From the IMG/VR virus record IMGVR_UViG_3300045988_123629: a stretch of 64,000 nucleotides of DNA, one strand, 5' to 3'. A program made the translations under genes and the position numbers. Every line of letters starts with the position of its first letter. The stretch's first letter is position 1. The notes under the pieces were generated by a model that saw only the letters and a list, made by a program, of their open reading frames with translations, had not been told where the DNA came from and made no database searches. Below are positions 1,366-47,144 of this stretch, one piece after another. This DNA comes from a virus.

Positions 1366-1449
1366 TTTTAAGAACCTCCATATTTAAAAATATCTATATA
1401 TAAAATAAAGAGGGGAAACAAATCCCCTCTTTATTTATCATTTATTTAA

Positions 1450-4035: not shown

Positions 4036-4058
4036 ATTATATATTTACCTCCTTCAAA

Positions 4059-5306
4059 TTAGCCGATGGTGACAGCATAAGTCTCGCCAGCATCAATAGA
4101 AGCAGGCTGATAAACATATACATCATATTTAGCCGCAGTATAACCATTAGCACCTTCAACATCAACTTGAGTGCCCTGTTTTACGAATAGAGCAGTAACA
4201 TCAGCATTGAGTGCGCTAGGCATAAGAACCTTAGTAATCTTGCGACCAGCAGGAACGGCAACAATAACTTTCTTCGCGCCAGCACCAGCACCAAAAGTAG
4301 TGAGAGCGCCAGTACCACTAGCCTGTTTATGCGCAAGGGCGCGAATATTGACAGAGTTTAGAGCCATATCAGCACTGGACATGGGACCCCAGAACATATA
4401 ACGGACACCAGTTAGAGTTTTGGAATTTGCAGTAGCACTACCAGCTTTAATCTTACCTTCAGGATAAGGATTACCAAGATTAGTCTTAGGAACCGCACCC
4501 TCATTATAGGTAGCCTTGGCGGTAATCTTTTTGGAAGTGGCCTCAGCAACAACATTCTCAAAAGAACCAGTTGCAGTGGACTTACTATCAGCAACACCAG
4601 TACAATTGACTTCCCAAGTTTGAGCAGTGATACCAGTAGCAGGACCATAGGTATAATTACCAGTAGACAGAGCTGCAGCATAAGTCAAATTTTTCTTAGT
4701 GCCAATTTCAAAAGTACCAAAACCGCCTTCGGCTGTAAAGGATACAGCAGGATTAGACTTAGAAGGATTGACCTCCTGAGCCATTAAAGAAGAGAGTACC
4801 TATTCAACATTCTTACCCTTAGCAGCAAATTTAGCAGAGCCAGAGGGCTGAGCAAGTGTACCAAAACCAACTGTGTAAGTAATATCTTCATCAAAATATA
4901 CATTATCAGCACGATAATTGCCATCAAAAGCGGCCCAATTAGCACCATCATAGAAATACGCAGTACGAGAAGTTTTACCCTCAACAAACGCATTCTCAAT
5001 AACAGCCATATCTCCCTGAACAGGAGTGGCAATTGTTGCCAGCATATCGGCATCAGTCTTATCTTCAGTTAGAGTTAAGACAGAAACTTTATCACGATTG
5101 CTATTAATAATAGATTTAATAGCATTCTCATCGACACCGGAGTAATTAAGTTCATTCCAAGCTTTAGTACCATCACCAATCTTAATTTTACCAGTGTCAA
5201 CTTCAATACCCATTTCACCTTTTAACAGCACAGGGTTTTTTTCAACCCAAGTGGCTGCTTCATCATTGCGGAGTTGAATACGGGTTTTTAAAGTATTTCC
5301 AGCCAT
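4059..5306 (-). CDS. Tail fibre-like protein. The conserved N-terminal fibre domain (4800-5306) is probably fused to the 4059-4784 segment by read-through of the in-frame TAG at 4800-4802.
   Basis: The N-terminus (MAGNTLKTRIQLRNDEAATW...GEMGIEVDTGKIKIGDGTKAWNELNY) carries the fibre motif. TAG at 4800 lies in frame with the ATG at 4782-4784, and there is no convincing RBS before that ATG. The final stop is TAA at 4059. Confidence 0.4.
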
Positions 5307-8823: not shown

Positions 8824-9340
8824 TTAATTTCCCCCTTTTATCTTAAAAATTTCTAAAACCATTTTTAAATCGCGGTTTCGGTCCTTGCGTTTGATGCCGG
8901 TCGGACCACATTAACCGCCCTTATTTAAGCAAACAAAAATGCTCTTAAATTTTGTTATCATGTTCTTTTACTCCGCAAACGCTAACCCGTAGGTTGCCTT
9001 ACGCTTCCTTCCACCATCAAAGAACAATCAAACTCCATTTAAGAGCATTTTCTCGGTTTGTTTTCAGTATTCAATTTGGTTAGATTTAAATAGGAAATCT
9101 TACTTATTCCGCACCGATCAGCATTAAAATTAACAATAGTGCCAAATCACCTTTAATATAAATATTCCTTACCTATTCTTAATCACTCTTTCGTTGTGGT
9201 TAACGTCTTTTCTTCAGCCTGTTAGGAAAAGAAACCTATCGTTTTAAATAAACAACGCCGTCGCCATCTACGACCTTGCCACTTACTCAGGTACGATAAG
9301 CAGTTTTTGCGATTACTATAAAGTATACTGCCAAATACTT

Positions 9341-9430
9341 TGGTCGGAGATGAGGGAATCGAACCCACTCGAGCGACTGAGCGCACCGGTTTTACAGACC
9401 GGGGTGTCTACCTTATCACGTTAATCTCCG
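9341..9430 (-). tRNA. tRNA-Tyr (anticodon GTA), class II with a long variable arm.
   Basis: Manual fold. Acceptor CGGAGAU/AUCUCCG. Anticodon arm CCGGU-CUGUAAA-ACCGG. T-loop GGTTCGATTCC. CCA is encoded. Confidence 0.7.
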
Positions 9431-9770
9431 AAATATATTTCTTATAATCTTTAATAAATCGCAAATAATCTTCTCGATTATAAGGAATATCATTATATTT
9501 ATTAAAATCATGTGCAAAAGCGCAATAAATTAAAAAATCTAAATGCTTAGATTTTAATTGAACATGCCATTCATAAGAACCATCAAGTCTAGCTCCATAA
9601 GCGCGATGAAATAAAGTATATTCTCCAAACCGCGCTTTATCTGCAAGCACAATTTTAAAATCATCTCGATTATTATGAATATTTAAAACATCATAACCAA
9701 GACCATTTTTAGTAAACTTATGAGAACCACCAAAGGTTTCTTCACAATAATTTAAATAAATATCAAACAT
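9408..9770 (-). CDS. Hypothetical protein (120 aa).
   Basis: ORF from the six-frame track. Its 3' end overlaps the 5' end of tRNA-Tyr by about 20 nt. No recognisable motif. Confidence 0.3.
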   Translation of the reverse strand: MFDIYLNYCEETFGGSHKFTKNGLGYDVLNIHNNRDDFKIVLADKARFGEYTLFHRAYGARLDGSYEWHVQLKSKHLDFLIYCAFAHDFNKYNDIPYNREDYLRFIKDYKKYISEINVIR

Positions 9771-10004
9771 TTTTTATTTGAGGGTTTTAATTAGGTTAAC
9801 CCACAACCTCCGATAGTGTGTCTACTGGACCAAGGAAATACCCGATCGCCGCATTTCGCTCTTTAAAAGATGGACGCTTCTAATCCTACTTCCTATCGTA
9901 TAAAAGGACTTATCAATGACTTTTATACATATTGCCTTTATTACCTTTATAAACAAATTAGCATTACCCAGTGCTACCGCGAGGAGGTTTTGTTTTTAGC
10001 ACCG

Positions 10005-10093
10005 CAGCCCCGCTGGGATTCGAACCCAGAACGACTCCTTCAAAGGGAAAACGGTTTTAGAGACCGCCGTGTTAACCATTACACTACGGGGCA
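10005..10093 (-). tRNA. Putative amber-suppressor tRNA (anticodon CTA, reads UAG). It has a long, class II-like variable arm of about 21 nt and discriminator G73.
   Basis: Manual fold of UGCCCCG-UA-GUGU-AAUGGUUA-ACAC-G-GCGGU-CUCUAAA-ACCGU-(21-nt arm)-CUGGG-UUCGAAU-CCCAG-CGGGGCU-G. The anticodon loop is CUCUAAA, giving anticodon CUA. Pair 1:72 is U.U. CCA is not encoded. Confidence 0.65.
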
Positions 10094-10102
10094 ATAAACT
10101 CC

Positions 10103-10222
10103 TTAATTCAACTTACGGAGTTTTCGCTTCATCTTATTAATGAGACGCTGATTCATAACTTCACCATGGGAATACAATTTCGCAATGCGATTTTCATAAT
10201 GCTCTTTAGTGCGACAAATCAT
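10103..10222 (-). CDS. Small basic hypothetical protein (39 aa).
   Basis: AAGGAG RBS followed by an ATG. Sequence MICRTKEHYENRIAKLYSHGEVMNQRLINKMKRKLRKLN, then TAA. It is too short to appear in the ORF track. Confidence 0.35.
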   Translation of the reverse strand: MICRTKEHYENRIAKLYSHGEVMNQRLINKMKRKLRKLN

Positions 10223-10357
10223 AATTTTTCTCCTTAAATTGAATTTATGGTTCGGAGAGGATTATCTGCGTCATCTAGACCCAATTTTTTCATTCATTAT
10301 ATATTCTTTCAGAGTAGCAAATTCATAATCAAATATATAACTTAGCAGAACTCCGAT

Positions 10358-10555
10358 GGCACGGCCGGCTGGACTCGAACCAGCAGATGCAGGAGTCAGG
10401 GCTCAAAAGTTGGACTTGCACCAACATTCTCGGTTTTATAGGACCGGAAGCCTACTAACAGAACTTATATAATACTACTTAACCCCGTCATATTATATAA
10501 CCCATTTAACTGATTTTGAGAAAGTCCTGTGCCTTACCAATTTGGCGACGACCGT
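10358..10555 (-). tRNA. tRNA-Gln (anticodon TTG) gene interrupted by an insertion of about 125 nt in the anticodon loop. Either an intron-containing tRNA or a disrupted pseudogene.
   Basis: The 5' part (ACGGUCG-UC-GCCAAAUUGGUAAGGC-A-CAGGA-CUUU) and the 3' part (UGAC-UCCUG-CAUCU-GCUGG-UUCGAGU-CCAGC-CGGCCGU-G-CCA) together match the bacterial tRNA-Gln architecture. The acceptor halves are complementary. An insert of about 125 nt lies between anticodon-loop positions about 35 and 36. Confidence 0.5.
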
Positions 10556-10810
10556 ATAAAACAAGACACCAAAGAATTTCAATCAATTTATTTCATCTAT
10601 TTGTCGATTAATTCTCTCTTACCCCAAACAGACTACACCTTCGACAGGTAATCAAAAGTTATTGGTAAAACAATATCTCTGTTATCTTCTATTATAGAAA
10701 AGAAAATTCGCAGTTTGTGGTGTCTTTGATATATTTAAAACACGAACGCTGTGCTCAACCATTACACTAATTACAGCTGATTATTGGAATCGAACCAATC
10801 CTGCGTTCGG

Positions 10811-10886
10811 TGGTACGGGATGAGGGACTCGAACCCACGGCCTCCTGAATGTAAGTCAGATGCGCTACCAGCTGCGCTAATCCCGT
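10811..10886 (-). tRNA. tRNA-Val (anticodon TAC).
   Basis: Acceptor ACGGGAU/AUCCCGU. Anticodon arm UCUGA-CUUACAU-UCAGG. T-loop GGTTCGAGTCC. Discriminator A73 and an encoded CCA. A T-arm-only tRNA fragment lies immediately 3' at about 10775-10805. Confidence 0.7.
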
Positions 10887-11295
10887 ATAAGCAACTCAAT
10901 TAATAAAAGTTGCTACAAAATCCTTTTCAAACATATACATAGGAGCAGAAGCAAGACCGCCATCATCAATCTTACAATACAAAATAATATCTTCCGCATT
11001 GGGATTAGAAGCGCGGGCAATTGCTTTTACAAGCTCCTTATTATCAATGGAATTATAATAGCAACCAAAATCAACAGAAGTCTTTTTCATTTTTTATCAA
11101 TTCCTTTCTTAACTTTCTATATATATTATATTATATTTTTTATAAAAAATCAAAAAAGTTATTTCAAACTAGACACGTTAGAAAACATAATTTCAAGTTA
11201 TGTGCGTTAACCAATTTCGCCAAAACCCCAGTTGGAGTTTACAGGATTTGAACCCGTATACCTTTCTAATGAAAGAATTGCTGTATGTGTCTAAA

Positions 11296-11458
11296 TGGTC
11301 CGAGTGGAGCGACTCAAACGCTCGGCCTCCTGAACCCTAGTGGCAACAATGAGATTCGAACTCATAACAGCTATTAACTGACCTCGGGAGCGACCCTCAG
11401 ACATTACCATTCTGTCATCTTGCCAAATCAGGCGTTCTATCAACTGAACTACACCCGG
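11296..11458 (-). tRNA. tRNA-Pro (anticodon TGG) gene interrupted by an insertion of about 90-105 nt in the anticodon loop. The insert itself has a tRNA-like T-arm and acceptor.
   Basis: The 5' part is CCGGGUG-UA-GUUC-AGUUGAUA-GAAC-G-CCUGA-UUU. The 3' part is GGGU-UCAGG-AGGCC-GAGCG-UUUGAGU-CGCUC-CACUCGG-A-CCA. The acceptors pair across 7 bp. The mature loop would be UUUGGGU (anticodon UGG). The insert contains ATGAG-TTCGAAT-CTCAT. Confidence 0.45.
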
Positions 11459-11479
11459 AAATAAACTATATTTTTTATT

Positions 11480-11656
11480 TTAAACTAAATCAATTTCATC
11501 TAAAATAAAATTTTGTTTCTTTTTACAATGAACGCAATACATTGTTTTTCGATGTTTCTTTCCTTTGTAAGAAAATCTTTTAAAATTCTTAGCTTTAGGA
11601 GCGGTCATTTGTAAATGGCAAACAGGACAATGAAAATACCTTAATTGAAATTTCAT
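11480..11656 (-). CDS. Small zinc-ribbon protein (58 aa, CxxC...CxxC).
   Basis: GAGAGG RBS followed by an ATG. Sequence MKFQLRYFHCPVCHLQMTAPKAKNFKRFSYKGKKHRKTMYCVHCKKKQNFILDEIDLV, then TAA. It falls below the 60-aa cutoff of the ORF track. Confidence 0.45.
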   Translation of the reverse strand: MKFQLRYFHCPVCHLQMTAPKAKNFKRFSYKGKKHRKTMYCVHCKKKQNFILDEIDLV

Positions 11657-11828
11657 TATTTATACCTCTCAATCAAGACGATTTTTTAAATCACAATCAA
11701 GTATCCTATTAATTAAACTACATTTAAAAATACAGTTAAGGTCCTGCACCACACATCCGATCTTTGTTCCCCACATATAGGAGTGGGTATGGCCTTTAGG
11801 CAGAATCGTATTTGTTATTAACTGCCCA

Positions 11829-11905
11829 TGGTAGTCCGGGTGAGACTTGAACTCACGACCCTGCGATTATCAGTCGCATACTCTAGCCAGCTGAGCTACC
11901 GAACT
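11829..11905 (-). tRNA. tRNA-Ile (anticodon GAT).
   Basis: Acceptor AGUUCGG/CCGGACU. Anticodon arm UGCGA-CUGAUAA-UCGCA. D-arm GCUC-AGCUGGCUA-GAGU. T-loop GTTCAAGTCTCAC context. CCA is encoded. Confidence 0.7.
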
Positions 11906-11934
11906 ATAAACAAGACTAAATTATCAATACTATT

Positions 11935-11990
11935 GCTCTACCAATTGAGCTAACTCCCGATGGCCGGGAGCGAAGGACTTGAACCTCCAA
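11935..11990 (-). pseudogene. Permuted tRNA halves. A tRNA 3' half (T-arm, acceptor and CCA) is followed directly by the matching 5' half (acceptor and D-arm). There is no anticodon arm.
   Basis: The minus-sense sequence reads GGAGG-UUCAAGU-CCUUC-GCUCCCG-G-CCA-U-CGGGAGU-UA-GCUC-AAUUGGUA-GAGC. The two acceptor strands are mutually complementary, but their order is 3' half then 5' half. Confidence 0.35.
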
Positions 11991-12083
11991 CACATAGTTC
12001 CTTTTATGATAAAAATTGCTGTTTTAGTCTTTAATTTATATATTTATTATATAATATTTTTTTATAAATGTCAAAAAGTTTTA

Positions 12084-12941
12084 TTAAGTAGTTAAAAACG
12101 CATTATAACCTTTTGATTTTAAATCGTTAATTACTTTTATAGCATTTGCTTTGACAGAAAAAGCACCGACTTGAACTTTATAATACTTACCAATCTTACG
12201 AATATAAGCATTTTTATAACCTGCTCCAATAGTATCAGGTAATGCTTTAATTTTCAATAAGAAAGCATCAGCATTAGATTTAGATCCAAAAGCACCAAGT
12301 TGAACACGATAAATAATTTGTGGTTTGAGATAAATAGCCATTACATTATCGACTGCGCGATTGCCCCAATCTTTAGTGATACAAGTTCCATTATGAAGAA
12401 CTTTTGTGCTACCACCGCCATCAAGGTTAATTGCATAATCAACTTTTAATGCTAAAAGTAAATTCTACATTTCCGCGAATGCCATACCTGGCTTTTCAAT
12501 AGCGATTAAATAAATATTAAATTTATTATATGCTAATACTGTTCTACGGGCTTTATAATTTAACTCTTTAGCATAAGTAATTTGAGTTTTTTTACCAGCC
12601 TTAATTAATACTGGATAACCGCTAACAAAATCTTCAAACTTTTCTGTTCCAATTATACCGTATTTCAATTCACCATTAATGATACCAAAACCTTCTTTAT
12701 AAGAAGAAGTGGAATTAATGATTATACCATTGTCCATATAATTAAAACAAGTGCCACCATTATCCATGCTAAAGAAACCACCATTAGTTAAAATAGTAGG
12801 TTTAACCGCACAACTATCATAGTATTGCTTTAAAGTCTAACGCGGTTGAGCGCATAACGCCATATCTAACTTACTAATTTCTTCTTTTGGAATTTCAATA
12901 ATTTTTACATATGAATAATTACTTGGAGAATATATCTTCAT
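12084..12941 (-). CDS. Putative cell-wall hydrolase or lysin. It has a phosphodiester-glycosidase (NAGPA-like) domain followed by two C-terminal SPOR peptidoglycan-binding repeats. It contains two in-frame TAG codons.
   Basis: AAGGAAGG RBS followed by the ATG at 12939-12941. ORFs 12465-12767 and 12084-12341 are in the same frame, and I checked 12342-12464 triplet by triplet. Motifs: TNGGFF and INLDGGGST (NAGPA family), YRVQLGAFGSKSNA and YKVQVGAFSVKANA (SPOR). TAGs are at 12465-12467 and near 12840. Confidence 0.55.
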
Positions 12942-13005
12942 CAAATCACCTTCCTTAATATTTTTAAGGTTTCAATGATTCTTATTAATGAAATATACCC
13001 TCGAT

Positions 13006-13085
13006 TGGTACGGCTACTGGGACTTAAACCCAGATTATGACAGCTTAGAGGGCTGGTGCCATATTCAATTAGGCGATAGCCGTAA
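13006..13085 (-). tRNA. tRNA, probably Arg (anticodon TCT). It has an atypical C at position 33.
   Basis: Acceptor ACGGCUA/UAGCCGU, A73 and CCA. T-arm CUGGG-UUUAAGU-CCCAG. Anticodon arm CCAGC-CCUCUAA-GCUGU. Confidence 0.45.
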
Positions 13086-13196
13086 ATTTATCTACAAGAC
13101 TCTTTATTCTTCTTAATCCCACATTAAGCGCTTATTGCAAGCAAAAAAGTTGCTGTATGAGTCTTTATTTAGTTAAGAAAGGAAATACCATGACAA

Positions 13197-13272
13197 TGGT
13201 AGGGGTAGATGGGATCGAACCATCAATTCCTCAATTATAAGTTGAGAGCCTTACCGATTTGGCCATACCCCC
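13197..13272 (-). tRNA. tRNA with anticodon TAT (Ile-AUA decoding type) and a Gln-like D-arm.
   Basis: Acceptor GGGGGUA/UACCCCU with CCA. D-arm GCC-AAAUCGGUAA-GGC. Anticodon arm CUCAA-CUUAUAA-UUGAG. T-loop GGTTCGATCCC. Confidence 0.5.
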
Positions 13273-13279
13273 ATACCAT

Positions 13280-13876
13280 TTATATCTCTTCAGTCTTATT
13301 TTTAAATCTTTGACTATTTAGATACTTATAATTGGGAGTCAAAGAATGACAATTAGGGCACAATAATTCTAAATTATTCAAATCATTGTGAGTTCTATCG
13401 CCATCTTTATGATGAATCTCTAAAGGACATTTCCCAGTTGTTGGATTAATTTCTCCCCAACCACACTTCTAACATTTATTATTATATTTTTTGAAAAGAT
13501 AAGTTCTAATAGAATCAGAAATTTTAGTAGCATTTCCACTTTTCTTTAAACCACTTTCTTCTCCATTAGCAACTTTTTCAATATATTCTTTTCTTTTATA
13601 TTCCTACTAACAAGCATTAGAACAATATTTATACTATCCTTTATGTAATTCTTTACCGCAATTTAAACAATATTTTTCTTTAACTTTTCCTGTAGTATTA
13701 CAAATACATCCGCACGACTTTGTAGCTCCTCTTGTTAAATTGCCAGTTTTTATTTCTTTCTAATTTCCACAATCACATTGGCATAACCAATAAGTACTTC
13801 CATTACGACTTGGTGCTTTTTTAAGAGCAACTAATCTTCCAAATCTTTGACCAGTAATATCTAAAGCATTAGGCAT
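13280..13876 (-). CDS. HNH homing endonuclease with at least 5 in-frame TAG codons.
   Basis: AGGAGTG RBS followed by an ATG at 13874-13876. The stop is TAA at 13280-13282, and I checked that start and stop are in the same frame. Motifs: N-terminal ...YWLCQCDCGN(TAG)KEIKTGNLTRGATKSCGC and HNH core CPLEIHHKDGDRTHNDLNNLELLCPNCH. No ORF of 60 aa or more appears in the track because of the TAGs. Confidence 0.6.
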
Positions 13877-13972
13877 ATTTATATAACACTCCTTTTATTT
13901 TTCTTCTATTATATATAAATATACCTACTTTTAAACTAAGGGTTTAAGTCCAAAATTTTTCTAATAATTAAT

Positions 13973-14491
13973 TTAAGAAACCCGCGACTTCAACCAATAA
14001 ACTGACATCCGTTCATTAGGCTGATTTGTCATTTCACCTTTTGGCCCTAAAATTTCAGGATAAGGCCAAACATATTCATTAGCAGTCTTTTCGTCAGGAA
14101 ATTCAACTTCTGCATAACAAAATTTTCCATCAACTTCGCTAACCTCAATCAAACGATTAAGATTATAAATATCTTCGACCATATAATAATCCTTGATAAT
14201 AGGATTATAACCTTCGTGTCGAGTTTTCTTAATCATTTCATAGAAATCTGCGGAAATTGGCGTTTCAATTTCTTCACGAGAAAGACCATCACCATATTTA
14301 TAAGTCATCTTATAATCAACTTGATTGGTTTTAAGGTTAATAGCCTTCCGCACTCGAATTTCTTCAAGCACTTTACCATCATTATCAAAATCAATCATAA
14401 GATAAATTTGTTCAATTTTCTTATGACGAACACTTTTTTCCTTCATCCAAGAAGGGATATTTTTAATATCAAACTTACGTTCGATTTCCAT
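13973..14491 (-). CDS. CYTH-domain protein (triphosphate tunnel metalloenzyme, CyaB/ThTPase-like).
   Basis: The N-terminal MEIERKF motif is diagnostic of CYTH domains. A 172-aa ORF without TAG. Confidence 0.55.
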   Translation of the reverse strand: MEIERKFDIKNIPSWMKEKSVRHKKIEQIYLMIDFDNDGKVLEEIRVRKAINLKTNQVDYKMTYKYGDGLSREEIETPISADFYEMIKKTRHEGYNPIIKDYYMVEDIYNLNRLIEVSEVDGKFCYAEVEFPDEKTANEYVWPYPEILGPKGEMTNQPNERMSVYWLKSRVS

Positions 14492-14649
14492 CTTTATACT
14501 CCTTTAACTCTTGGAAATAAGTAAGAATCTACTCATTTTTATCAATAATCTCTGAACTATAATTATAATACTTCATAGAAGCAATCTAATCTTTCCATTC
14601 AGCGATTAACTAATCTACGGTATAATTCATAATTTCACCTACTTACTAT

Positions 14650-14725
14650 TGGGGTGACTGGCGGAATTCGAATCCGCGACCTTCTGAGCCACAATCAGAC
14701 GCTCTACCAACTGAGCTACAGCCAC
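14650..14725 (-). tRNA. tRNA-His (anticodon GTG).
   Basis: Acceptor GUGGCUG/CAGUCAC and discriminator C73. Anticodon arm UCUGA-UUGUGGC-UCAGA. T-loop GGATTCGAATTCC. CCA is encoded. Confidence 0.7.
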
Positions 14726-14726
14726 A

Positions 14727-14813
14727 TGGTGCTTTTGGTGAGACTCGAACTCACATGAACTTTACGCCCACTAGATTCTTAGTCTAGCATGTATACCAAT
14801 TCCATCACAAAAG
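14727..14813 (-). tRNA. Class II tRNA, probably Leu (anticodon AAG).
   Basis: Acceptor GCUUUUG/CAAAAGC and A73. Anticodon arm CUAGA-CUAAGAA-UCUAG. Long variable arm. T-arm GUGAG-UUCGAGU-CUCAC. CCA is encoded. Confidence 0.5.
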
Positions 14814-14909
14814 CATTTTCTTATTTTCATATATTTATTATATAATATTTTTTTTATAAAGTCAAAAGGGGCCGATGTAAAGTATATTCACTTTACATCG
14901 GCCGTCGCG

Positions 14910-16049
14910 TTAATAAAGATACTGTTCAATAGTGTTTGCGACCTTAGTTAAAACAACAGACTTAATTACGCGCTCATTTTTAGCCTTTTCAATAGCTTCC
15001 TTACGCTTTTCAGCATCAGTAATCGTCCAAAAGTCATCAGGATCAATGTAAACTTCAACCTTTTTCGGATCAGCTGTAATCATACCCTTTTCAATCTTAA
15101 TCGAATCAGGAGTCAAGGCATAACGAATAGTCTTACTATCTGAGGCATAACCATCATACCATCTTTGATGATTGGTATTAGGATTGTTAAACAAATTAAC
15201 TGAAGCACCATAGGTATTATATACATCACCATTTACCGTAGTAATAGTGATATTGAAACGAACATTGGAAGTCTGAGAGATATTAAGGTCTTCAAGAGTT
15301 TCTGCCACACCATAACCCTGATTAAGTTCAAAAGCAATCGCTCGAAGATAATCATAAGTCATATTAACAGTGCGAGAAAAATTCACAATATCCTTAATAC
15401 CATCTGCGTATTTAGGCTTAACCTTATCAGTCAAATACTCAACGATCTCTTCCTCAGTTGGGAAAGTAATCTTAAAATGATAATGGAAACGACCAGGTCT
15501 ATTCAAAAGATAAGTGCTAAGTCGATCAACTTCATTACAAGTAATGACAAAAAGCTTCTTACCATTATCAAGACCATCAAAAAGAGAAAGCATTTCTTCC
15601 TGCGGAGAGGGGCCCGCATGGTCGTCAGAGTTATTAGAGAAATTCTTTTCAAACTCATCAAAAATAATTACGACTTCTTGCTCGATACTGGAAATAAAAT
15701 CTGCGATACCAGGCATATAAGTATTAGCCAAAAGGACAGGATATCCGTTTTCAATAGCGTGATGAGAAAGAATACGAGCAAACAATGACTTACCAATACC
15801 CTTCTGACCACTTAAAATAACACCAAGATTACGGTCTGAATACTTAAAAGAATTAAGCACCTTATTGACTTTAACTTCGTGATTACCATAAATTTTTTCC
15901 TCATTGACCGCAAGATCTGGACGAGAAGAAAGATAAAAACCTGCCATCTTACTAAAGCAGACTTCAAAAGACATAAGCGGAAGTCGCTTATAAGTCTTAA
16001 CGTCCTCGCCATAAATCTGATAGCGAGAACCAGCGTTTACAATATTCAT
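14910..16049 (-). CDS. AAA+ ATPase.
   Basis: Walker A GQKGIGKS, Walker B VIIFDEFE and the NRPGRFH sensor/arginine motif typical of classic AAA modules. A 379-aa continuous ORF. Confidence 0.65.
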   Translation of the reverse strand: MNIVNAGSRYQIYGEDVKTYKRLPLMSFEVCFSKMAGFYLSSRPDLAVNEEKIYGNHEVKVNKVLNSFKYSDRNLGVILSGQKGIGKSLFARILSHHAIENGYPVLLANTYMPGIADFISSIEQEVVIIFDEFEKNFSNNSDDHAGPSPQEEMLSLFDGLDNGKKLFVITCNEVDRLSTYLLNRPGRFHYHFKITFPTEEEIVEYLTDKVKPKYADGIKDIVNFSRTVNMTYDYLRAIAFELNQGYGVAETLEDLNISQTSNVRFNITITTVNGDVYNTYGASVNLFNNPNTNHQRWYDGYASDSKTIRYALTPDSIKIEKGMITADPKKVEVYIDPDDFWTITDAEKRKEAIEKAKNERVIKSVVLTKVANTIEQYLY

Positions 16050-16076
16050 ACTTAATCCTCTTAATTTAAAATTTAA

Positions 16077-16165
16077 TGGCGAAGGAGAGAGGATTCGAAC
16101 CTCCGGGCCCCAAATGAGGCCAACACCTTAGCAGGGTGCCGCATTCAACCAGCTCTGCCACTCCT
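16077..16165 (-). tRNA. tRNA-Ser (anticodon GCT).
   Basis: Acceptor GAAGGAG/CUCCUUC and G73. Anticodon arm GCACC-CUGCUAA-GGUGU. Long variable arm. T-loop GGTTCGAATCC. CCA is encoded. Confidence 0.7.
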
Positions 16166-16259
16166 TCATAATATATAAATAGAATAATTTACTGCTTAAA
16201 CAGATGATATCCTCGTTTAAACCATACCACACCCTCACCCAACGCCTCAATTATTCTAT

Positions 16260-16496
16260 TTATTTACACCTATATATAATTAGCTTAGGCTTAATACTAT
16301 ATCCACAATAACTACGCCAAGTGCGATAATTACTAAAAATATAATATTTTCTATCAGGTTTAATATTACCAAATAAATTTAAAACTCTCAGTCCTTGCTT
16401 ATAATGAGAAGTTTTATTATTCACTTGATAATTGGCCCAATCAAGAATTTCTTGACCGCTAAAACAAGGATTTTTATAGCTTAAAATATTTTTCAT
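16260..16496 (-). CDS. Hypothetical protein (78 aa).
   Basis: ORF from the track. No motif. Confidence 0.3.
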   Translation of the reverse strand: MKNILSYKNPCFSGQEILDWANYQVNNKTSHYKQGLRVLNLFGNIKPDRKYYIFSNYRTWRSYCGYSIKPKLIIYRCK

Positions 16497-16906
16497 ATCC
16501 TACCTCCTCTGCTTTTCTGGACTTGGAACCAGCCTATGGTAGCATTAGATAGGCGACCGCACTTATCGTTCGCTAGGACAAAACTCGCGCTCATCGCCAA
16601 AGATCAAATCATCAACATCTTTAAACATATCAGACAATCCTCCTTCTTTATTTATTTTTATGAAACAAAATAGAGAGTAGAAAAACAATTCATTTCTATG
16701 GAAGTGAGAGAAAACAACAATCTATATATCAAACGAAAGGGGAAATCAAACAGAAAGATAAGTAAGAAAATGAACTAGATGTAAAAGACTCTCTCTATTG
16801 TATAGTCTTTTGTTTCTATATATTTAAATATATAGAAGAGTAGCCTTTCTAACAGGCATCCCAACAGCCTCGAGCAGCAAAGAGGTTCCTCATTTGTTGG
16901 TCTTTT

Positions 16907-16982
16907 GGTGGGCGGAGACAGAATCGAACTGCCGACGCTAGGATCTTCAATCCTACGCTCTACCAACTGAGCTATCCGCCCA
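16907..16982 (-). tRNA. tRNA-Phe (anticodon GAA).
   Basis: Acceptor GGGCGGA/UCCGCCC. Anticodon arm UAGGA-UUGAAGA-UCCUA. T-loop GTTCGATTC. CCA is encoded. Confidence 0.75.
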
Positions 16983-17195
16983 TAATATTTATATTGCTAC
17001 GATTCCCGATTCTCCACGTAGTCATTCTTCCTTTAAAATTGACTAAAAGAATGTGATATTTTATTTATCGTACTACATCAACAATATAAATAGAACAAGA
17101 CGCTATAAACAATCTTAAGCATATGTATTTTGTACATTGATGTTTTAAAGTTTGCTGTTAGCGCCTTAATTATTCAAAAAGAAAGGAAAGATAAA

Positions 17196-17399
17196 TTATG
17201 CGTTTGCGGGTTCCGCGTTCTTCGGTCTGCGGAACTTTACATAACGCTCACCATCATATCGGGACATCCAAATGATTGTGCCATCCTTAAAATGGAAATC
17301 ATAAGTAAAATCTTTATCCTGTTCATCAACCTGATGGCAAAAGCCCTTACCATACTTCTTAGAATAAACCTTGTCGCCGGGCTTAAACTTAAACTTCAT
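17196..17399 (-). CDS. Hypothetical small protein (67 aa).
   Basis: ORF from the track (MKFKFKPGDKVYSKKYGKGF...). No TAG. Confidence 0.35.
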   Translation of the reverse strand: MKFKFKPGDKVYSKKYGKGFCHQVDEQDKDFTYDFHFKDGTIIWMSRYDGERYVKFRRPKNAEPANA

Positions 17400-17444
17400 T
17401 TAGATATCTCCTTTTGGATTATTTTAATTTACAAGACACAAATG

Positions 17445-17518
17445 AAATATTTGTTGGAATTGAACCAACTACAATTTGTTTGACAGACAAATACTCTACC
17501 AATGAGTTAAAATACTTT
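17445..17518 (-). tRNA. tRNA-Asp (anticodon GTC), AT-rich.
   Basis: Acceptor AGUAUUU/AAAUAUU. D-arm ACUC-AUUGGUA-GAGU. Anticodon arm UUUGU-CUGUCAA-ACAAA. T-arm GUUGG-UUCAAUU-CCAAC. Confidence 0.55.
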
Positions 17519-17597
17519 CAATAGAAAATGATTGCTGTGTGTGTCTTTATTACTGTGATACCTCTTAAAAGAGGGCTTACGGCATTACGCCTAATAT

Positions 17598-18377
17598 TTA
17601 TATGTTTTTCCATTCATCATCAGTGTATAAATTTATAATTTTTTTTGTATTAGGTAAATTATAAGAAATACACCATTTTCTAATGGAATTATCACTTACA
17701 TGATATATATTCGCGATAGAAGTAAAACTTTTATTACGAATCAATTTTTTTAATTTATCACGAGAAGGTCTTTTAATTTTTCGATGTTCTTTAGCAGAAC
17801 ATTTCTAACATTTTTGACCTTTTCCGCTCCACTCTCCACCACATATAGGACAAACTTTTTTTAAAAGTTTTTTCTCTTCTTCTGGTTTATTTTTATCAAA
17901 ACGAGAATAATGTAAAGGATAATTTAATTTTTCATTAAACCAAGTTCTTCCAACATTTATATCTCTAATAGTATCTTTACTAACTTTATATTTTTTAGCT
18001 AATTCCGAATGATTAACTACACCTAACTTATCATTAATTAAAATATTTTGAATATCTTGGACTTCCTAATAATTTAATTTTTGATAAATTACGCGATAAT
18101 CTCCACCTATTGTCTAATTATACTCTGGTTTATAATAATCAATCCAATAAGTTTCTCTACTATTTAGATTATCAATTTCACATTCTTCTAACACTTCAAA
18201 TATAAAATTAGAAACACCATATTTTCTGAAACTTTGATATAAGGGATAATTATAGCTTTTACTCTTTTCATCTTGGGAGCTATATATATGATTTTCCCAA
18301 CGTTCTGCTATATTTCTTGACTATCCAATATAACAATGATTATTTATTTTATTAGTAATTTTATAAATTCCTATCAT
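17598..18377 (-). CDS. GIY-YIG homing endonuclease with about 5 in-frame TAG codons.
   Basis: AGGAGAT RBS followed by an ATG at 18375-18377. The stop is TAA at 17598-17600, in frame. Motif GIYKITNKINNHCYIG(TAG)SRNIAERWENH, which is GIY...YIG...R...H. There is a C-terminal Cys cluster (CPICGG...C(TAG)KC). Confidence 0.55.
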
Positions 18378-18460
18378 ATTACCATCTCCTTACACTATAA
18401 TTAAAATTTTATTTAAGATAATTATAATTTTTCGACCTCGAAAGTATTTAGGTGATGATA

Positions 18461-18534
18461 TGGTTGCGGTCGGGCGATTCGAACGCCGTTTTTGGCTTAT
18501 GAGGCCAACGAGCTACCTTTGCTCCACCACCGCA
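18461..18534 (-). tRNA. tRNA with anticodon CAT (elongator Met or Ile2 type).
   Basis: Anticodon arm UUGGC-CUCAUAA-GCCAA. D-arm GAGC-AAAGGUA-GCUC. T-loop TTCGAAT. CCA is encoded. Confidence 0.55.
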
Positions 18535-18535
18535 A

Positions 18536-18612
18536 TGGTCGGTCAAATTAGAATCGAACTAATATCCCTTGTCTTATGAGAACAATGCTCTACCAGTTAA
18601 GCTATTGACCGA
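18536..18612 (-). tRNA. Second tRNA with anticodon CAT (Met or Ile2 type).
   Basis: Acceptor CGGUCAA/UUGACCG. Anticodon arm UUGUU-CUCAUAA-GACAA. T-arm AUUAG-UUCGAUU-CUAAU. CCA is encoded. Confidence 0.6.
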
Positions 18613-18850
18613 AAATAGGATAGATATAATATTCATGACTATTATATCTATTGGACTTTCTAACCTATCGTCCCAAAATTCTTAATAGACCTCATCAAAT
18701 GGCCAACTTTTGTAGAGGCTTTTGTGCGACCACCTGCGCACTTACATAGACATAAGAATAATGCCAACATATGGCGACCCCGACGGGTGCCGACCCCGCT
18801 ATCTCCAGCGTGACAGGCTGGCGGCTCTGCTGACTGCCCCCAGGGCCATA

Positions 18851-18927
18851 TGGTACTCCCAGCCGGATTCGAACCGGCGACTCCAACGTGAAAGGCTGGT
18901 GACTTAAGTCCGCTTGTCGATGGGAGC
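18851..18927 (-). tRNA. tRNA-Glu (anticodon TTC).
   Basis: Acceptor GCUCCCA/UGGGAGU. Glu-type D-arm GAC-(12-nt loop)-GUC. Anticodon arm CCAGC-CUUUCAC-GUUGG. T-arm GCCGG-UUCGAAU-CCGGC. CCA is encoded. Confidence 0.6.
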
Positions 18928-19003
18928 ATATTAAATAGACTATAAAGCCGTCTATTAGGGCAAATAATATTTCAGTTCCTTACTAAAAGCGATAAAAGTA
19001 AGG

Positions 19004-19078
19004 TGGTGGCGCGAAGGGGATTCGAACCCAACTATCGCGAGAGTGAGAATCTCGCATCCTAAACCGTTAGACGACCGC
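19004..19078 (-). tRNA. tRNA, possibly Glu (anticodon CTC). The stems are imperfect.
   Basis: 3' end ...UUCGAAU-CCCCU-UCGCGCC-A-CCA. Anticodon arm CGAGA-UUCUCAC-UCUCG. One mismatch in the acceptor stem and a weak T-stem. Confidence 0.35.
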
Positions 19079-19520
19079 GTCATATTTAAGCACATCTATC
19101 ATAATCTTGATTTTTGTGCTTTTGTTTTCGCTTAAACGAGCCTTTACCTTTCTTCGCAGGAACTTTAAATCCTCTGCGCCGAAACAATTGAAGATACTCA
19201 TTAAGCTCTTCCTTATTCTTTTTCATATAACTTTTATTCACGGTATTCATCCTCATCTTCATAAAGGGAAAGATCCTGATAAGCAGCATATTCATCACTC
19301 TGAATCTCGCAAGCATAGCTTTCATAGTAATCATTATACATAATTTAAATCTTCCTTTCTTAACTTTCTATAAATATTATAACTTATTTTTTATAAAATG
19401 TCAAAAGATTAAAAGACCAACCAAAAGCGATATTTGTTAACGATGGTCGCCACTCCACCGCCGTCAATATTCACAAACACTTACCATTTTCACACTAACC
19501 TACTAATTAAAGGAGGTGAC

Positions 19521-19604
19521 TGGTGCTTCGAGAGAGACTTGAACTCTCACCATCCGTTCGGATAATCGGGTTTGAGCCGATCGCGTCTGCCAATTCCGCC
19601 ATCA
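19521..19604 (-). tRNA. tRNA-Leu (anticodon CAA), class II.
   Basis: Acceptor GCUUUGA/UCGAAGC and A73. Anticodon arm AUCGG-CUCAAAC-CCGAU. Long variable arm. T-arm GAGAG-UUCAAGU-CUCUC. CCA is encoded. Confidence 0.7.
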
Positions 19605-19614
19605 AAGCATAACT

Positions 19615-19745
19615 AAGAGGATTTTTAAGAAGAATCCTCAAAACTTCTTTCTAATCATCTAATTGGATTTTTAAGAAGAACCCTCAAAACTTCTTTCTAA
19701 TCTAACGGAAGTTTTAAGAAGATCTTCCAACTTCTTTCTAATCTT
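19615..19745. repeat. Three tandem hairpin repeats of about 40 bp (TTTAAGAAGAAyCCTCAAAACTTCTTTCTAATC) immediately adjacent to tRNA-Leu(CAA).
   Basis: Three direct repeats seen by eye at about 19625, 19667 and 19708. Each contains the inverted repeat AAGAAG...CTTCTT. Confidence 0.6.
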
Positions 19746-20155
19746 AATCGCACTTTAGGGCGGCCGTCCCTTCGCGGCGTCACGATTTGCATAATTTACT
19801 GTATTACCATTTTATTTTCCGAAAAAGGCTACAAACCAAAACGGGAGTTATTTAAGAATAACTTCTAGACTACGCTAACTGCTCAAATTTTCTCTTCTTA
19901 GTGGGAAAAACTTTCTTAGCGCTGAAACCAAAATCACTATTAGCATTTTGTATATATTATCTTATTGTATATAAGTTTTATTAATATACCTTATCTATTA
20001 TATCATTTAGTATATTGTATTAATGTTTAATTAATAAGATAATATTTCTGGCTGCTTTTATCACCAATCATATAATTGGTTATATTGGGCAATGCTCCCA
20101 AACTTGCGGTTTACTTAACCGCCGTGCTTACTCTTTACACCATATAACCATATAA

Positions 20156-20235
20156 TGGTGGACCTCGTGAGAATCGAACTCACCTGATTTTCTGTGTGCA
20201 AGACAGACGACCACGCCATGCAGTCCCGAAGCCCG
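20156..20235 (-). pseudogene. Degenerate tRNA-Ala-like element (anticodon arm with TGC). The D-arm is truncated.
   Basis: T-arm GUGAG-UUCGAUU-CUCAC, acceptor 3' GAGGUCC-A-CCA and anticodon arm UCUGU-CUUGCAC-ACAGA are all present. Only about 12 nt lie between the acceptor and the anticodon stem. Confidence 0.35.
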
Positions 20236-20322
20236 AAATGCGACTTATTTATGTATAGATGGAGTCGCCAACCACCTGCGTTCAAAGTCCGCAAGCCTTC
20301 AACGCATTCCCAGGGAGGGATT

Positions 20323-20397
20323 GGTGCTGGAGAAAGGACTCGAACCTTCAGATTAATGATCCTAAATCATTCGTCTATGCCAATTCGACTACACCAG
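20323..20397 (-). tRNA. Class I tRNA with anticodon TAG (Leu-CUA decoding type). It has no long variable arm.
   Basis: Acceptor GCUGGUG/CUCCAGC, A73 and CCA. D-arm GUCG-AAUUGGCAUA-GACG. Anticodon arm AAUGA-UUUAGGA-UCAUU. T-arm GAAGG-UUCGAGU-CCUUU. An alternative fold gives a 6-bp stem with a 5-nt loop. Confidence 0.4.
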
Positions 20398-20637
20398 CAA
20401 ATAAAGAGTTTTATAACCCACATCGCGAAGATTCGAACTTCGTCAACCGTTAGGACTCGAACCAACTTTTACTCTTTTGGATTCCCAGAACCCATAGCCT
20501 TGATTAATGTGAGTATAGCCACTACTTCACAATAAGTTTTACTTCGCTTTCTTATATTTAGTCGGGCGTTTTCCGCAAACCACATACTCTTTCGATCGGT
20601 GGTAGTTTAAACTTACAAAATCCGTGTTAACGCCCCA

Positions 20638-20714
20638 ATGGCGGGAGAGATAGGATTCGAACCTATGACATCTTGTTTAACAGACAAGCGCTCTAACCAA
20701 CTGAGCTACACTCC
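20638..20714 (-). tRNA. tRNA-Asn (anticodon GTT).
   Basis: Acceptor GGGAGUG/CUCUCCC. D-arm GCUC-AGUUGGUUA-GAGC. Anticodon arm CUUGU-CUGUUAA-ACAAG. T-arm AUAGG-UUCGAAU-CCUAU. CCA is encoded. Confidence 0.7.
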
Positions 20715-21206
20715 CATAAAAGAAGGACTTTTTAAAATCCTTACTTTATATATTTATTATATTATATTTTTTTTAAAAAATCAACTTTTCTCTTTTACCC
20801 AAATTTTTTTATTTTCTTTTTTCTTTCTTCATTTTATATAAATATTATATAATATTTTTTATAAAATGTCAATAAGGTCTTTGAATTGGCATTAAATCAT
20901 CTTCTGAAAGAAGCCACTTTTCACCATGCTCATCAAGGACTTCAATCTGATAATTTAATACTCGAATGACAGTACATTTAAGATACTGTCTACGATAACA
21001 ACGACCACGATAAGGGACAAAACAATAAGAATTACCAACTTCAATATTCATTATTTATTTTCTCCTTTCTCAACTTTCTATATATATTATATTATATATT
21101 TTTAATAAAATCAAAAAAGTTCTTTTTGTTTAAGTAGATTTAACAAATTTACCACAATTTTAGTCGAAATCAGGAACACCGCGTGAAGGTATTGTGGATA
21201 GTTCCC

Positions 21207-21288
21207 GCAGGCGCCGTAGGATTCGAACCCACACCGCAAGGTTTTGGAGACCCGCATGCGACCGTTACACCAGACGCCTATAAAACAA
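21207..21288 (-). tRNA. tRNA-Trp (anticodon CCA).
   Basis: Acceptor AGGCGUC/GGCGCCU and G73. Anticodon arm CGGGU-CUCCAAA-ACCUU. T-arm GUGGG-UUCGAAU-CCUAC. Confidence 0.55.
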
Positions 21289-21302
21289 GACCTTAACTTT
21301 GT

Positions 21303-21383
21303 CCGAAAAATGGATTTGAACCATTAACTTAATCTTGAAGGATTATGACCTAACCTTTAGTCTATTCTGGAAGTTATTTTTGC
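21303..21383 (-). tRNA. Irregular Glu-type tRNA with a non-canonical anticodon loop. The best fold gives a 6-nt loop CUUCAA, so the anticodon is ambiguous (UUC or UCA).
   Basis: Acceptor UCCAGAA/UUUCGGA with one mismatch. Glu-like D-arm GAC-UAAAGGUUAG-GUC. Perfect 5-bp stem UAAUC/GAUUA enclosing CUUCAA. T-arm AAUGG-UUCAAAU-CCAUU. It is the first gene after the promoter at about 21390-21440. Confidence 0.4.
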
Positions 21384-21463
21384 TGTAAAGGTCTTTCTTT
21401 ATTTTATAAATATATTATATATTATTTTTTTAAAAATGTCAAAAAAATTTTTAATTGGTTATC

Positions 21464-28279: not shown

Positions 28280-28603
28280 TTCTTCGTTTTTGCGGATTCT
28301 GATAATATATCGCTTATTAGGAAATTTCTAAATCATATCATACATAATGTTTATATCATTATAATTAACCATAAGCTCATCAGCCTTCTCACGAACAACA
28401 TCAGGTTGACGCACAGAAACACAATATTTCAAATTATATCACTCCTTTATAATATAATTATAACAAAAAACTCTAATTTTGTCAAGAAAATTCTAAACGG
28501 CTTTTTACTTTTGGACTTTCGGTATATGCGACCAGCACCGGTCGGAGCAGATAACAAGAAAAAATGGACTGAAAAATTTTCAGTCCATTTAATCATTTAA
28601 TTC

Positions 28604-43480: not shown

Positions 43481-43652
43481 TCAGGAACAAATAATAGATT
43501 ATAAATAATTTTTAAATAATAGTGAGAGGAGGTGTGTTATGGAGATAAAGAAAAATTCTCGATAGATTCCCTCTGTTCCGACTATTACACGAGAAAAAGA
43601 TTATTGTGATTTATTATATGCTTGGTTGTAGTGTCATTCAGAGAGAATTACT

Positions 43653-47027: not shown

Positions 47028-47144
47028 AAAATCCTCTCTATTGATTGAGGTTTACCATCGTTCTCTCAACCATTATTTTTTACCCTTTTTTGCTTGTTTT
47101 TGGGTGAAAAACCGCATTTTTCAGCGGTTTTTCACCCTTTTTCG

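Follow-up and report, generated by a model that had tools for sequence, protein, structure and literature searches.

TAG-containing and TAG-free genes interleaved in a phage tRNA array: evidence for two codon classes and for invasion by endonuclease cassettes

The 64,000 nucleotides (nt) of the IMG/VR virus record IMGVR_UViG_3300045988_123629 analysed here, referred to as the window, raise the question of why genes interrupted by the amber codon TAG are interleaved with genes free of it inside a transfer RNA (tRNA) array. A putative lysin gene with NAGPA and SPOR domains and two endonuclease genes, one of HNH and one of GIY-YIG type, contain in-frame TAGs, and the adjacent CYTH-like, AAA+ ATPase and small genes contain none. 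A sequence-only reading of this array had proposed that recoding gates the timing of lysis and DNA cutting to the period in which a suppressor tRNA is expressed. The observation itself is confirmed and conserved, and the pattern is of a kind already described for recoded phages. Its probable explanation is that the window belongs to a Herelleviridae-like gut phage of about 160-196 kb, whose own tRNA with the anticodon CUA, tRNA(CUA), decodes TAG as glutamine (Gln), and whose genes form two translation classes, TAG being purged from one and near-neutral in the other. The interleaving would then result from an inherited layout together with the invasion of cassettes.

The window has a G+C content of 37.7%, and nearly all of its genes lie on the minus strand. 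ARAGORN predicts 21 tRNA genes within 9341..21371, including the anticodon-CUA tRNA at 10004..10093, and an Rfam search adds two more at 13009..13083 and 11341..11424. Neither these two tRNAs, nor a TAG-containing gene of 51 amino acids (aa), nor the suppressor tRNA, which lies outside the coordinates covered there, had been listed in the sequence-only reading. A megablast search of 9000..22000 against 50,697 phage records gave no DNA-level match, and relatives were located by protein search. Nine close relatives (L001 to L009) with AAA+ proteins 88-99% identical to that of the window were obtained, seven of them IMG/VR contigs of 159-196 kb, and tRNA(CUA) was found in all nine. The AAA+ protein is 42-43% identical to Herelleviridae ATPases, such as those of Enterococcus phage EF24C and Bacillus phage Deep Blue, and the EF24C homologue directly follows a tRNA cluster.

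Under the standard code, the lysin region yields fragments of 85 and 100 aa, and full-length open reading frames (ORFs) appear once TAG is read through. The lysin, HNH and GIY-YIG genes contain two, five and four in-frame TAGs and no other stops, which bears out the claim that all three need amber suppression. That all 11 internal stops are TAG, which makes up only 17% of the out-of-frame stops, is not expected by chance (P = 3e-9). Pfam matches of the lysin span its TAGs (NAGPA 6.5e-17, SPOR 1.3e-14), and exactly two TAGs are present in the gene in all nine close relatives; its frame in the ORF list reaches back to a TTG at 12944. The GIY-YIG protein has a Pfam domain match (5.7e-10) and a match to a PHROG homing endonuclease across residues 1-234 (3e-34), and the first TAG of its gene falls in the YIG-Q-S motif. 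The HNH protein remains just below the Pfam cut-offs (HNH_3 22.7 bits, cut-off 24.8; HNH 19.5 bits, cut-off 21.4) and reaches 7e-20 and 1e-17 with PHROG HNH families; a motif HH..N..H can be seen in its translation, downstream of every TAG of the gene. Homing endonuclease genes often decay, and these subthreshold scores could also point to pseudogenes that are decaying rather than recoded. However, the exclusive use of TAG, the absence of frameshifts, the domain matches running over TAGs, the exchange of TAG with CAA or CAG in orthologues and the tRNA(CUA) in every relative make decay extremely improbable, and it was rejected.

The meaning of TAG can be read from the same orthologue comparisons. 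Among 26 differing pairs, 11, spread over eight independent sites, exchange TAG and CAA, which makes this the commonest replacement although it needs two base changes. The 51-aa ORF adds four further exchanges of this kind; in L008 its peptide is conserved and all three TAGs are CAA or CAG, which marks it as a real gene. Both lysin TAGs align to conserved Gln residues among 24 homologues. These alignments indicate that TAG is read as Gln in this phage, and the codon counts given below, in which TAG takes the place of CAG, point the same way. An unpaired U1 and G73, both present in the suppressor tRNA of the window, are also features of bacterial tRNA-Gln. Two unrelated tRNA(CUA) bodies of 90 nt and 73 nt occupy the identical locus between conserved flanks and are followed by the same ribozyme; the 73-nt allele, of ordinary form, is found in L006 (7688..7760) and L009 (15138..15210). 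Serine, suggested by the long variable region and G73 of the 90-nt allele, was considered as the meaning of TAG and rejected on the basis of the TAG and CAA exchanges, the Gln alignments and the 73-nt allele.

The distribution of TAG follows a division of the genes by codon usage. For genes of at least 100 aa, the median G+C content at third codon positions (GC3) is 0.18 for TAG-containing and 0.41 for TAG-free genes (Mann-Whitney p = 1.5e-6). Gln is encoded by CAA, CAG and TAG 80, 22 and 53 times in TAG-containing genes and 66, 89 and 0 times in TAG-free genes. The class regarded as late has almost no CAG, and TAG accounts for 44% of its Gln codons; the class regarded as early is rich in CAG. 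At the late-class share, the complete lack of TAG among 147 Gln codons of TAG-free genes would have a probability of about 6e-38. The same division is present in the array, where the lysin and both endonuclease genes together have 11 TAG and no CAG codons and the TAG-free genes no TAG and 11 CAG codons (Fisher p = 2.8e-6).

That the neighbours of the three genes need no suppression also holds. None of the 16 Gln codons of the AAA+, CYTH-like, ORF78 and ORF67 genes is TAG (P = 9e-5 at the late-class TAG share), the AAA+ gene is without TAG in every lineage seen, and the CYTH-like gene is TAG-free in all nine close relatives. The AAA+ protein matches Pfam AAA (5e-11) and has a Walker A motif at residue 81 and a Walker B motif at residue 128. 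For the CYTH-like protein there was no direct Pfam hit at E <= 0.01; it has an N-terminal EIERK (ExExK) motif at residues 2-6, full-length homologues (1e-9 to 1e-3) that carry PF01928 or are named CYTH, and weak sequence hits to the PDB entries 2FBL and 3TYP (NeuTTM, the CYTH protein NE1496). This label comes from the homologues and is the least secure of the assignments.

To estimate which TAG level is to be expected without selection, a late-class pool of seven tail-fibre-like genes, the lysin and the two endonuclease genes was used. In this pool the TAG/CAG ratio is 19.0, and the corresponding leucine ratios are 15.9 for TTA/CTA and 16.0 for TTG/CTG. Because TAG/CAG is close to these TTR/CTR ratios, TAG behaves as a neutral synonym under the T-over-C bias of the class. 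TAG makes up 25% of the Gln codons in the lysin gene, 62% in the HNH gene, 40% in the GIY-YIG gene, 50% in the two nuclease genes together and 45% in the tail-fibre-like genes. Neither the lysin (Fisher p = 0.45) nor the nucleases (p = 0.79) differ significantly from the tail-fibre-like genes. Selection is therefore seen as the exclusion of TAG from early-class genes, not as its enrichment in lysis and nuclease genes.

Several points weigh against this account. The labels early and late were assigned by codon usage, promoter motifs and a small number of functional annotations only, and the leucine ratios are only a rough yardstick of neutrality. The late class is not uniform, as three tail-fibre-like genes at 22..5306 (minus strand) have two TAGs and are rich in CAG and AAG, which suggests a recent acquisition or another expression class. 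The gene at 27632..28432 (minus strand) starts 25 nt behind a perfect sigma-70 promoter and carries one TAG, at codon 35; the pattern of a TAG-free early class is broken here unless the start is misplaced. A TAG at codon 35 of the lysin gene, invariant in 19 sequences of three lineages, could reflect a selected early stop rather than neutrality. Furthermore, NAGPA is not a proven peptidoglycan hydrolase, and no holin was found near the lysin. Counting TAGs per gene against expression class, as the sequence-only reading had suggested, thus gave a result that is strong for codon class and less so for expression class, which was read from promoters and few annotations and to which the genes at 22..5306 and 27632..28432 are exceptions.

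A separate TAG-rich gene without an evident lysis or structural role lies at 43539..44162. It is a lone plus-strand gene of 207 aa with six TAGs and 26% G+C, located between TAG-free blocks, and matches ScpB-like proteins weakly in PHROG.

If two translation classes exist, one of them must be readable by the unmodified host machinery, and would have a higher GC3, use CAG, follow consensus sigma-70 promoters and be purged of TAG. This class would include the AAA+, CYTH-like and small array genes. The other class, with a GC3 below 0.2 and almost no CAG, would use TAG as an ordinary, near-neutral synonym of CAA and hold the tail-fibre, NAGPA-SPOR lysin and homing endonuclease genes. The interleaving then probably has two causes, namely an inherited layout that groups tRNAs, AAA+ ATPase and lysin, and the homing of endonuclease-plus-tRNA cassettes into the array. 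Completion of the lysin and of both nucleases would be possible only after the suppressor tRNA is functional. Their dependence on the suppressor would be a consequence, and the purging of TAG from one class with its neutral use elsewhere explains the pattern sufficiently.

The second cause can be followed in the relatives, and the earlier view of the two endonuclease genes as mobile elements beside tRNA genes agrees with their presence and absence at fixed slots. The GIY-YIG gene is flanked by tRNA-Met at 18461..18534 and a tRNA at 17444..17516, and the gene of the window is absent from all nine relatives. Its slot, from tRNA-Met-2 to the next tRNA, is empty and about 80 bp long in L002, L005, L006, L007 and L009, and holds a different GIY-YIG gene (35% identical) in L003. 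The insert begins directly after the 3' CCA of tRNA-Met-2 and extends to about 17556, and the body of tRNA-Met-2 differs from the allele of endonuclease-free relatives, which is consistent with co-conversion of the flanks. Among the nine relatives the HNH gene occurs only in L003, with a copy 100% identical to that of the window. It forms a cassette with its own tRNA-Ile(UAU) allele, and the two stand in place of other sequence within the conserved flanks TTCTTAA and TTGTCATGG; in L005 this slot carries a different allele of tRNA-Ile(UAU) and lacks the HNH gene. The position in relatives that matches 13009..13083 of the window carries a tRNA-Arg(tct). Since two of the three TAG-containing genes are recent insertions that are missing in most relatives, the interleaving is largely the outcome of invasion and not a designed layout.

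At the slot of the HNH gene and tRNA-Ile, L001 (~11995..12150) and L002 (~12080..12235) hold a tRNA-like sequence of about 150 nt that seems to nest a second tRNA-like unit.

Other array slots in the relatives hold at least five more GIY-YIG genes, one HNH gene and one PD-(D/E)XK endonuclease gene. All GIY-YIG and HNH genes in the relatives have one to five TAGs and a GC3 of 0.09-0.15, and paralogues just 40-49% identical have the TAG of the YIG-Q-S motif in common. The low GC3 and the TAGs in all of these genes, together with the retention of this TAG in distant paralogues, indicate a long residence in recoded genomes. The nearest known case is SegB, a GIY-YIG homing endonuclease of the T4 tRNA gene cluster (PMC2330249). 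As in T4, a free-standing GIY-YIG gene lies between tRNA genes, varies in presence among related phages and is accompanied by changes in the adjoining tRNA sequence that would fit co-conversion. In contrast to SegB, the gene of the window, whose product is a predicted endonuclease, has four in-frame TAGs and another C-terminal region with weak helix-turn-helix matches; several unrelated endonuclease genes occupy differing slots of the array across relatives.

From these data it might be supposed that GIY-YIG and HNH endonucleases have diversified within TAG-recoded phages, that their TAGs confine activity to suppressor-bearing cells, and that their cassettes move tRNA alleles, perhaps the suppressor among them, from one co-infecting phage to another. 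The TAGs and very low GC3 of these genes in four lineages, the conserved TAG in the YIG-Q-S motif, the tRNA alleles that change with the endonuclease gene and the action of SegB on the T4 tRNA region (PMC2330249) would agree with this, as would two suppressor alleles at a single locus and the GIY-YIG genes that end 5 nt before the suppressor tRNA in L003 and start 81 nt after it in L029. However, with about 20 tRNAs and one to three endonuclease genes per array, chance alone could place such a gene beside the suppressor in two of about 12 genomes, no cleavage sites are known, and low G+C and TAG may merely reflect the long stay in AT-rich recoded genomes. This idea is thus considered unlikely. 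Quite unlikely, too, is that the homing endonucleases are locked to the TAG-recoded pool, with cutting conditional on the suppressor and cassettes that shuffle arrays and occasionally the suppressor-ribozyme unit. If true, endonuclease cassettes would be a vehicle for a repeated and rapid onset of recoding in related lineages.

Promoter motifs give an indication of when the array is transcribed. Exact TTGACA-N17-TATAAT sequences occur at 28 sites in the window, compared with 0.01 expected, and perfect and 11/12 sigma-70 matches together at 46 sites, 42 of them on the minus strand. They are dense at 46-63 kb, with about one per few hundred bases ahead of small GC3-rich ORFs, and mostly have an extended -10 element (TGnTATAAT). 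This part, 46000..63000, is poorly covered by the gene model, which was trained on AT3-rich genes, and is probably an early region of the host-takeover type; dense promoters of this kind recall the host-takeover regions of SPO1-like phages. None of the sigma-70 consensus sites found in the window lies ahead of a tail-fibre gene. Inspection by eye upstream of TAG-containing genes gave AT-rich sequence and strong Shine-Dalgarno sites, and no convincing shared late-promoter motif.

Within the array, sites at 21442, 20872, 19404, 14865 and 12074, four perfect and one 11/12, each lie just before a tRNA group and are conserved in relatives. Their spacers are near-identical and AT-rich, without the TGn extension of the copies at 46-62 kb, and they may be a separate regulatory subclass. 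Because a perfect promoter heads the suppressor unit, the suppressor is probably transcribed by the host RNA polymerase from the start, without a phage factor. Likewise, as the lysin and endonuclease genes lie in predicted units headed by sigma-70 sites, their transcripts could be made early. From these motifs we infer the timing of expression, and any delay would have to arise from maturation or accumulation of the tRNA.

Maturation is of relevance because the suppressor tRNA has no encoded CCA, which most tRNAs of the array have, and is followed by a candidate ribozyme. This segment, 10003..9949, reaches 26.1 bits with the Rfam model RF02682 (F. prausnitzii HDV-like; HDV, hepatitis delta virus), which describes a longer relative and has a gathering threshold of 44 bits, with an E-value of 0.0035 in a local search. 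It fits the HDV core with P1 GGUGCU/AGCACU including a G1.U pair, P2 AAACAAA/UUUGUUU, P3 ACC/GGU, a 7-nt L3 UCCUCGC and J4/2 CUAA starting with the catalytic C; this core, P1.1 included, is recovered by a hand model and a strict descriptor. Applied to the window and 24 loci, the strict descriptor gave 13 hits, all of them 0-1 nt past a tRNA 3' end. A loose descriptor was discarded because of dozens of chance hits, and specificity was reached only with the strict version. The suppressor is followed by a hit in the window and in each of the nine relatives, whichever tRNA allele is present; the others come after tRNA-Trp in the window (G1 21206) and after tRNA-Glu(CUC) in L001 and L006. The candidate after tRNA-Trp has P1 GGGAAC/GUUCCU, P2 CCACAAU/AUUGUGG and L3 UUCACGC, and a third version follows tRNA-Glu(CUC) in L001 (G1 at 8476) and L006 (G1 at 710). 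Compensating changes in P1 and P2 among the three versions amount to covariation. For the suppressor to function, its 3' end would have to be freed, probably through cleavage by the HDV-like ribozyme next to it, and then be repaired and receive a CCA. The suppressor of the L027 lineage instead has an encoded CCA and no ribozyme.

Theta ribozymes, minimal HDV-like ribozymes that adjoin phage tRNAs, one fifth of them suppressors, have been described by Kienbeck et al. and tied to suppressor tRNAs and code 15 (PMC10879173). By its sequence features the candidate belongs to this tRNA-associated class: no more than 1 nt separates G1 from the tRNA 3' end, CCA is not encoded, the HDV core is present and the host genome is that of a gut phage using code 15. 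It differs in scoring below the RF02682 gathering threshold, and its self-cleavage is predicted.

Further elements were noted around these RNAs. The 717-nt spacer between tRNA-Val and the suppressor tRNA contains, at ~10357..10555 (minus strand), a tRNA-Glu(UUC) predicted by ARAGORN in intron mode with a 123-nt insert at 36/37, which holds tRNA-like arms of its own, and a 39-aa ORF ends just ahead of the suppressor. Sub-threshold matches to a type-P1 twister ribozyme (39-40 bits compared with 67.2, E = 1e-5) lie at 16501..16551 (minus strand) of the window and at 7212..7270 of L027. The 3' strand of the window copy overlaps the Shine-Dalgarno sequence of the ORF at 16260..16496, and the L027 copy lies just before tRNA-Ser. 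A Metallophos phosphoesterase is encoded at 39000..39734; that it might help to repair RNA ends after ribozyme cleavage is speculation.

The predicted catalytic domain of the lysin, NAGPA, is a phosphodiester glycosidase; a SPOR cell-wall binding domain is present (1.3e-14), and matches to PHROG endolysins are limited to the SPOR part. No holin or lysis cassette beside it was found in the 64-kb window, its neighbours being tRNAs, a promoter and small ORFs that were judged non-membrane by reading their translations and not by membrane-helix prediction. The NAGPA-SPOR architecture is kept in hundreds of proteins, many of them on phage-sized contigs of 95-195 kb, and 26 sequences were compared at the codon level. 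In three recoded lineages, namely the clade of the window, a clade 73-75% identical and L029 (61%), every one of the 19 sequences has TAG at codon 35, and other Gln sites of the lysin switch among TAG, CAG and CAA inside those clades. As a sign of selection, the stability of this TAG is suggestive and not significant, since codon 257 is equally stable as CAA. In the L010/L056 lineage (contig IMGVR_UViG_3300018878_000121) the lysin is 65% identical and has no TAG among ten Gln codons; it occupies the same array slot, followed by the same perfect promoter, and genes beside it have 7-10 TAGs, so this lineage is recoded. Standard-code relatives also have TAG-free lysins, and the L031 gene lies among replication genes.

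An adaptive timing gate, in which TAGs are selected so that early lysin and nuclease mRNAs stay inactive until the suppressor builds up, was proposed by the sequence-only reading and is already published by Borges et al., who suggested that recoding delays lysis genes and described an intron homing endonuclease silenced by in-frame stops (bioRxiv 10.1101/2021.08.26.457843). A translational block would be useful in units that are headed by sigma-70 sites and have no predicted terminator before the lysin and nucleases, the first TAG of each gene lies upstream of catalytic or binding parts, and the codon-35 TAG is invariant. A suppressor without CCA that needs ribozyme cleavage and end repair could cause a delay (PMC10879173), and in T4 the translation of homing endonucleases and of the lysozyme gene e is silenced on early transcripts (PMC2988022). 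Against a gate speak the lack of TAG enrichment in the lysin and nuclease genes compared with tail-fibre genes, the neutral level of TAG, the TAG-free lysin of the recoded L010/L056 lineage, the equal stability of codon 257, and the promoter type that the suppressor shares with early-type genes. The gate is compatible with the present data and possible, albeit doubtful; what stands of it is that TAG tracks the late-type codon class together with the tail fibres. Early expression of the suppressor, named by the sequence-only reading as a refutation, is no clean test because the model of Borges et al. already has the suppressor made early from standard-code regions (bioRxiv 10.1101/2021.08.26.457843).

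The pattern is nearest to that of the known code-15 gut phages, in which TAG is reassigned to Gln, a suppressor tRNA is encoded and late, structural and lysis genes are preferentially recoded (bioRxiv 10.1101/2021.08.26.457843), with recoding validated by proteomics (PMC9523058). A phage-encoded tRNA(CUA), TAG as Gln, the absence of TAG from one gene set and its frequent use in structural and lysis genes are shared with them. The regulatory logic proposed is likewise the same and extends to a homing endonuclease kept silent by in-frame stops. The window differs in being Herelleviridae-like, in the position of the suppressor in an array of 21-23 tRNA genes behind sigma-70 consensus promoters, and in a lysin that is not preferentially recoded, with TAG at a neutral level and a TAG-free lysin in a sister lineage. 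Unlike in the phages of Borges et al., no release factor or aminoacyl-tRNA synthetase as part of a code-change module was seen in the annotated parts of the window. The T4 transcripts show a similar need, since late-acting homing endonucleases and lysozyme lie on early polycistronic transcripts and are silenced translationally (PMC2988022); late-acting genes inside early or middle units would need a translational block here as well. In T4 the ribosome-binding site is masked by an RNA hairpin, whereas in-frame TAGs are the only candidate block in the window.

These results give a quantitative view of stop codon reassignment, in which one codon class uses TAG neutrally and the other excludes it strictly. 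What then needs explaining is less the recoding of lysis genes than the set of genes that have to remain readable in the absence of the suppressor. Suppressor tRNA, HDV-like 3'-end ribozyme and array homing endonucleases, previously described separately, occur together in one phage clade. With several complete relatives, among them IMGVR_UViG_3300045988_119030 (181 kb) and IMGVR_UViG_3300045988_110853 (196 kb), and a sister lineage with a TAG-free lysin, this clade offers a natural comparison for testing a timing gate. The coordinates of the features are collected in Table 1.

Table 1. Positions of genes, RNAs, regulatory motifs and predicted transcription units in the window
Feature	Coordinates	Strand	Details
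NAGPA-SPOR putative lysin	12084..12941	-	285 aa; TAG codons 35 (12839..12837) and 159 (12467..12465)
HNH endonuclease gene, free-standing	13280..13876	-	198 aa; GC3 0.15; TAG codons 39, 81, 90, 91, 136
GIY-YIG homing endonuclease gene, free-standing	17598..18377	-	259 aa; GC3 0.12; TAG codons 19, 88, 104, 191
GIY-YIG cassette, approximate extent	17556..18534	-	junction comparison
Small TAG gene	14475..14630	-	51 aa; three TAGs; overlaps CYTH start
AAA+ ATPase	14910..16049	-	379 aa; 0 TAG; 6 CAG; GC3 0.29
CYTH-like gene	13973..14491	-	172 aa; 0 TAG; GC3 0.25
ORF78	16260..16496	-	78 aa; TAG-free; conserved in relatives
ORF67	17196..17399	-	67 aa; TAG-free; GC3 0.48
tRNA-Ile(UAU)	13197..13272	-	HNH stop 7 nt before it; allele travels with HNH gene
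tRNA-Arg(UCU)-like	13009..13083	-	Rfam tRNA 46 bits; missed by ARAGORN; 65 nt upstream of lysin start
Suppressor tRNA(CUA)	10004..10093	-	90 nt; U1.U72 mismatch; G73; long variable region; no encoded CCA
HDV-like (theta-type) ribozyme candidate	9949..10003	-	55 nt; G1 1 nt past suppressor tRNA
Second HDV-like candidate	21152..21206	-	directly after tRNA-Trp(CCA), which is also without encoded CCA
Sigma-70 promoter, perfect	12046..12074	-	9 nt past lysin stop; conserved in all relatives
Sigma-70 promoter, 11/12	14837..14865	-	motif scan
Sigma-70 promoter, perfect	19376..19404	-	motif scan
Intrinsic-terminator-like hairpin, strong	14870..14903	-	15-bp stem; just past AAA+; sole strong one in array
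Predicted unit P19404			ORF82, four tRNAs, GIY-YIG, tRNA, ORF67, tRNA-Phe, ORF78, tRNA-Ser, AAA+, terminator
Predicted unit P14865			tRNA-Leu, tRNA-His, 51-aa ORF, CYTH, HNH, tRNA-Ile, tRNA-Arg-like, lysin
Predicted unit P12074			tRNA-Ile, two small ORFs, tRNA-Val, suppressor tRNA, tRNA-Tyr

Outside the array, the large TAG-free proteins at 25170..26624 and 29111..30715 (minus strand) have Cys-rich, zinc-ribbon-like C-terminal halves and appear paralogue-like by eye. Neither has a Pfam match; the first weakly matches PHROG 18912, a family of unknown function, and the second has no PHROG match. Inside the array, the ORFs 16658..17017 and 18660..18929 were dropped as spurious since they overlap tRNA genes.

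Some tRNAs of the array and its relatives are unusual. The first tRNA-like gene, 21301..21371 (minus strand), has an irregular anticodon loop and an Rfam tRNA score of 44 bits, and ARAGORN assigns it a 2-nt anticodon, "tc" in the window and "tt" in relatives. The tRNA at 17444..17516 (minus strand), which adjoins the GIY-YIG insertion, has the anticodon GUC (Asp) in the window compared with GUU (Asn) in all relatives, a one-base difference in an otherwise unchanged body. Just past tRNA-Tyr, L007 (16911..16990) and L009 (16489..16568) have a tRNA with the anticodon UCA, which reads TGA and is possibly a second suppressor; the window has no counterpart. The L027 lineage, whose lysin is 75% identical to that of the window, carries a transfer-messenger RNA gene (8871..9211; 78.5 bits, above threshold) within its tRNA array.

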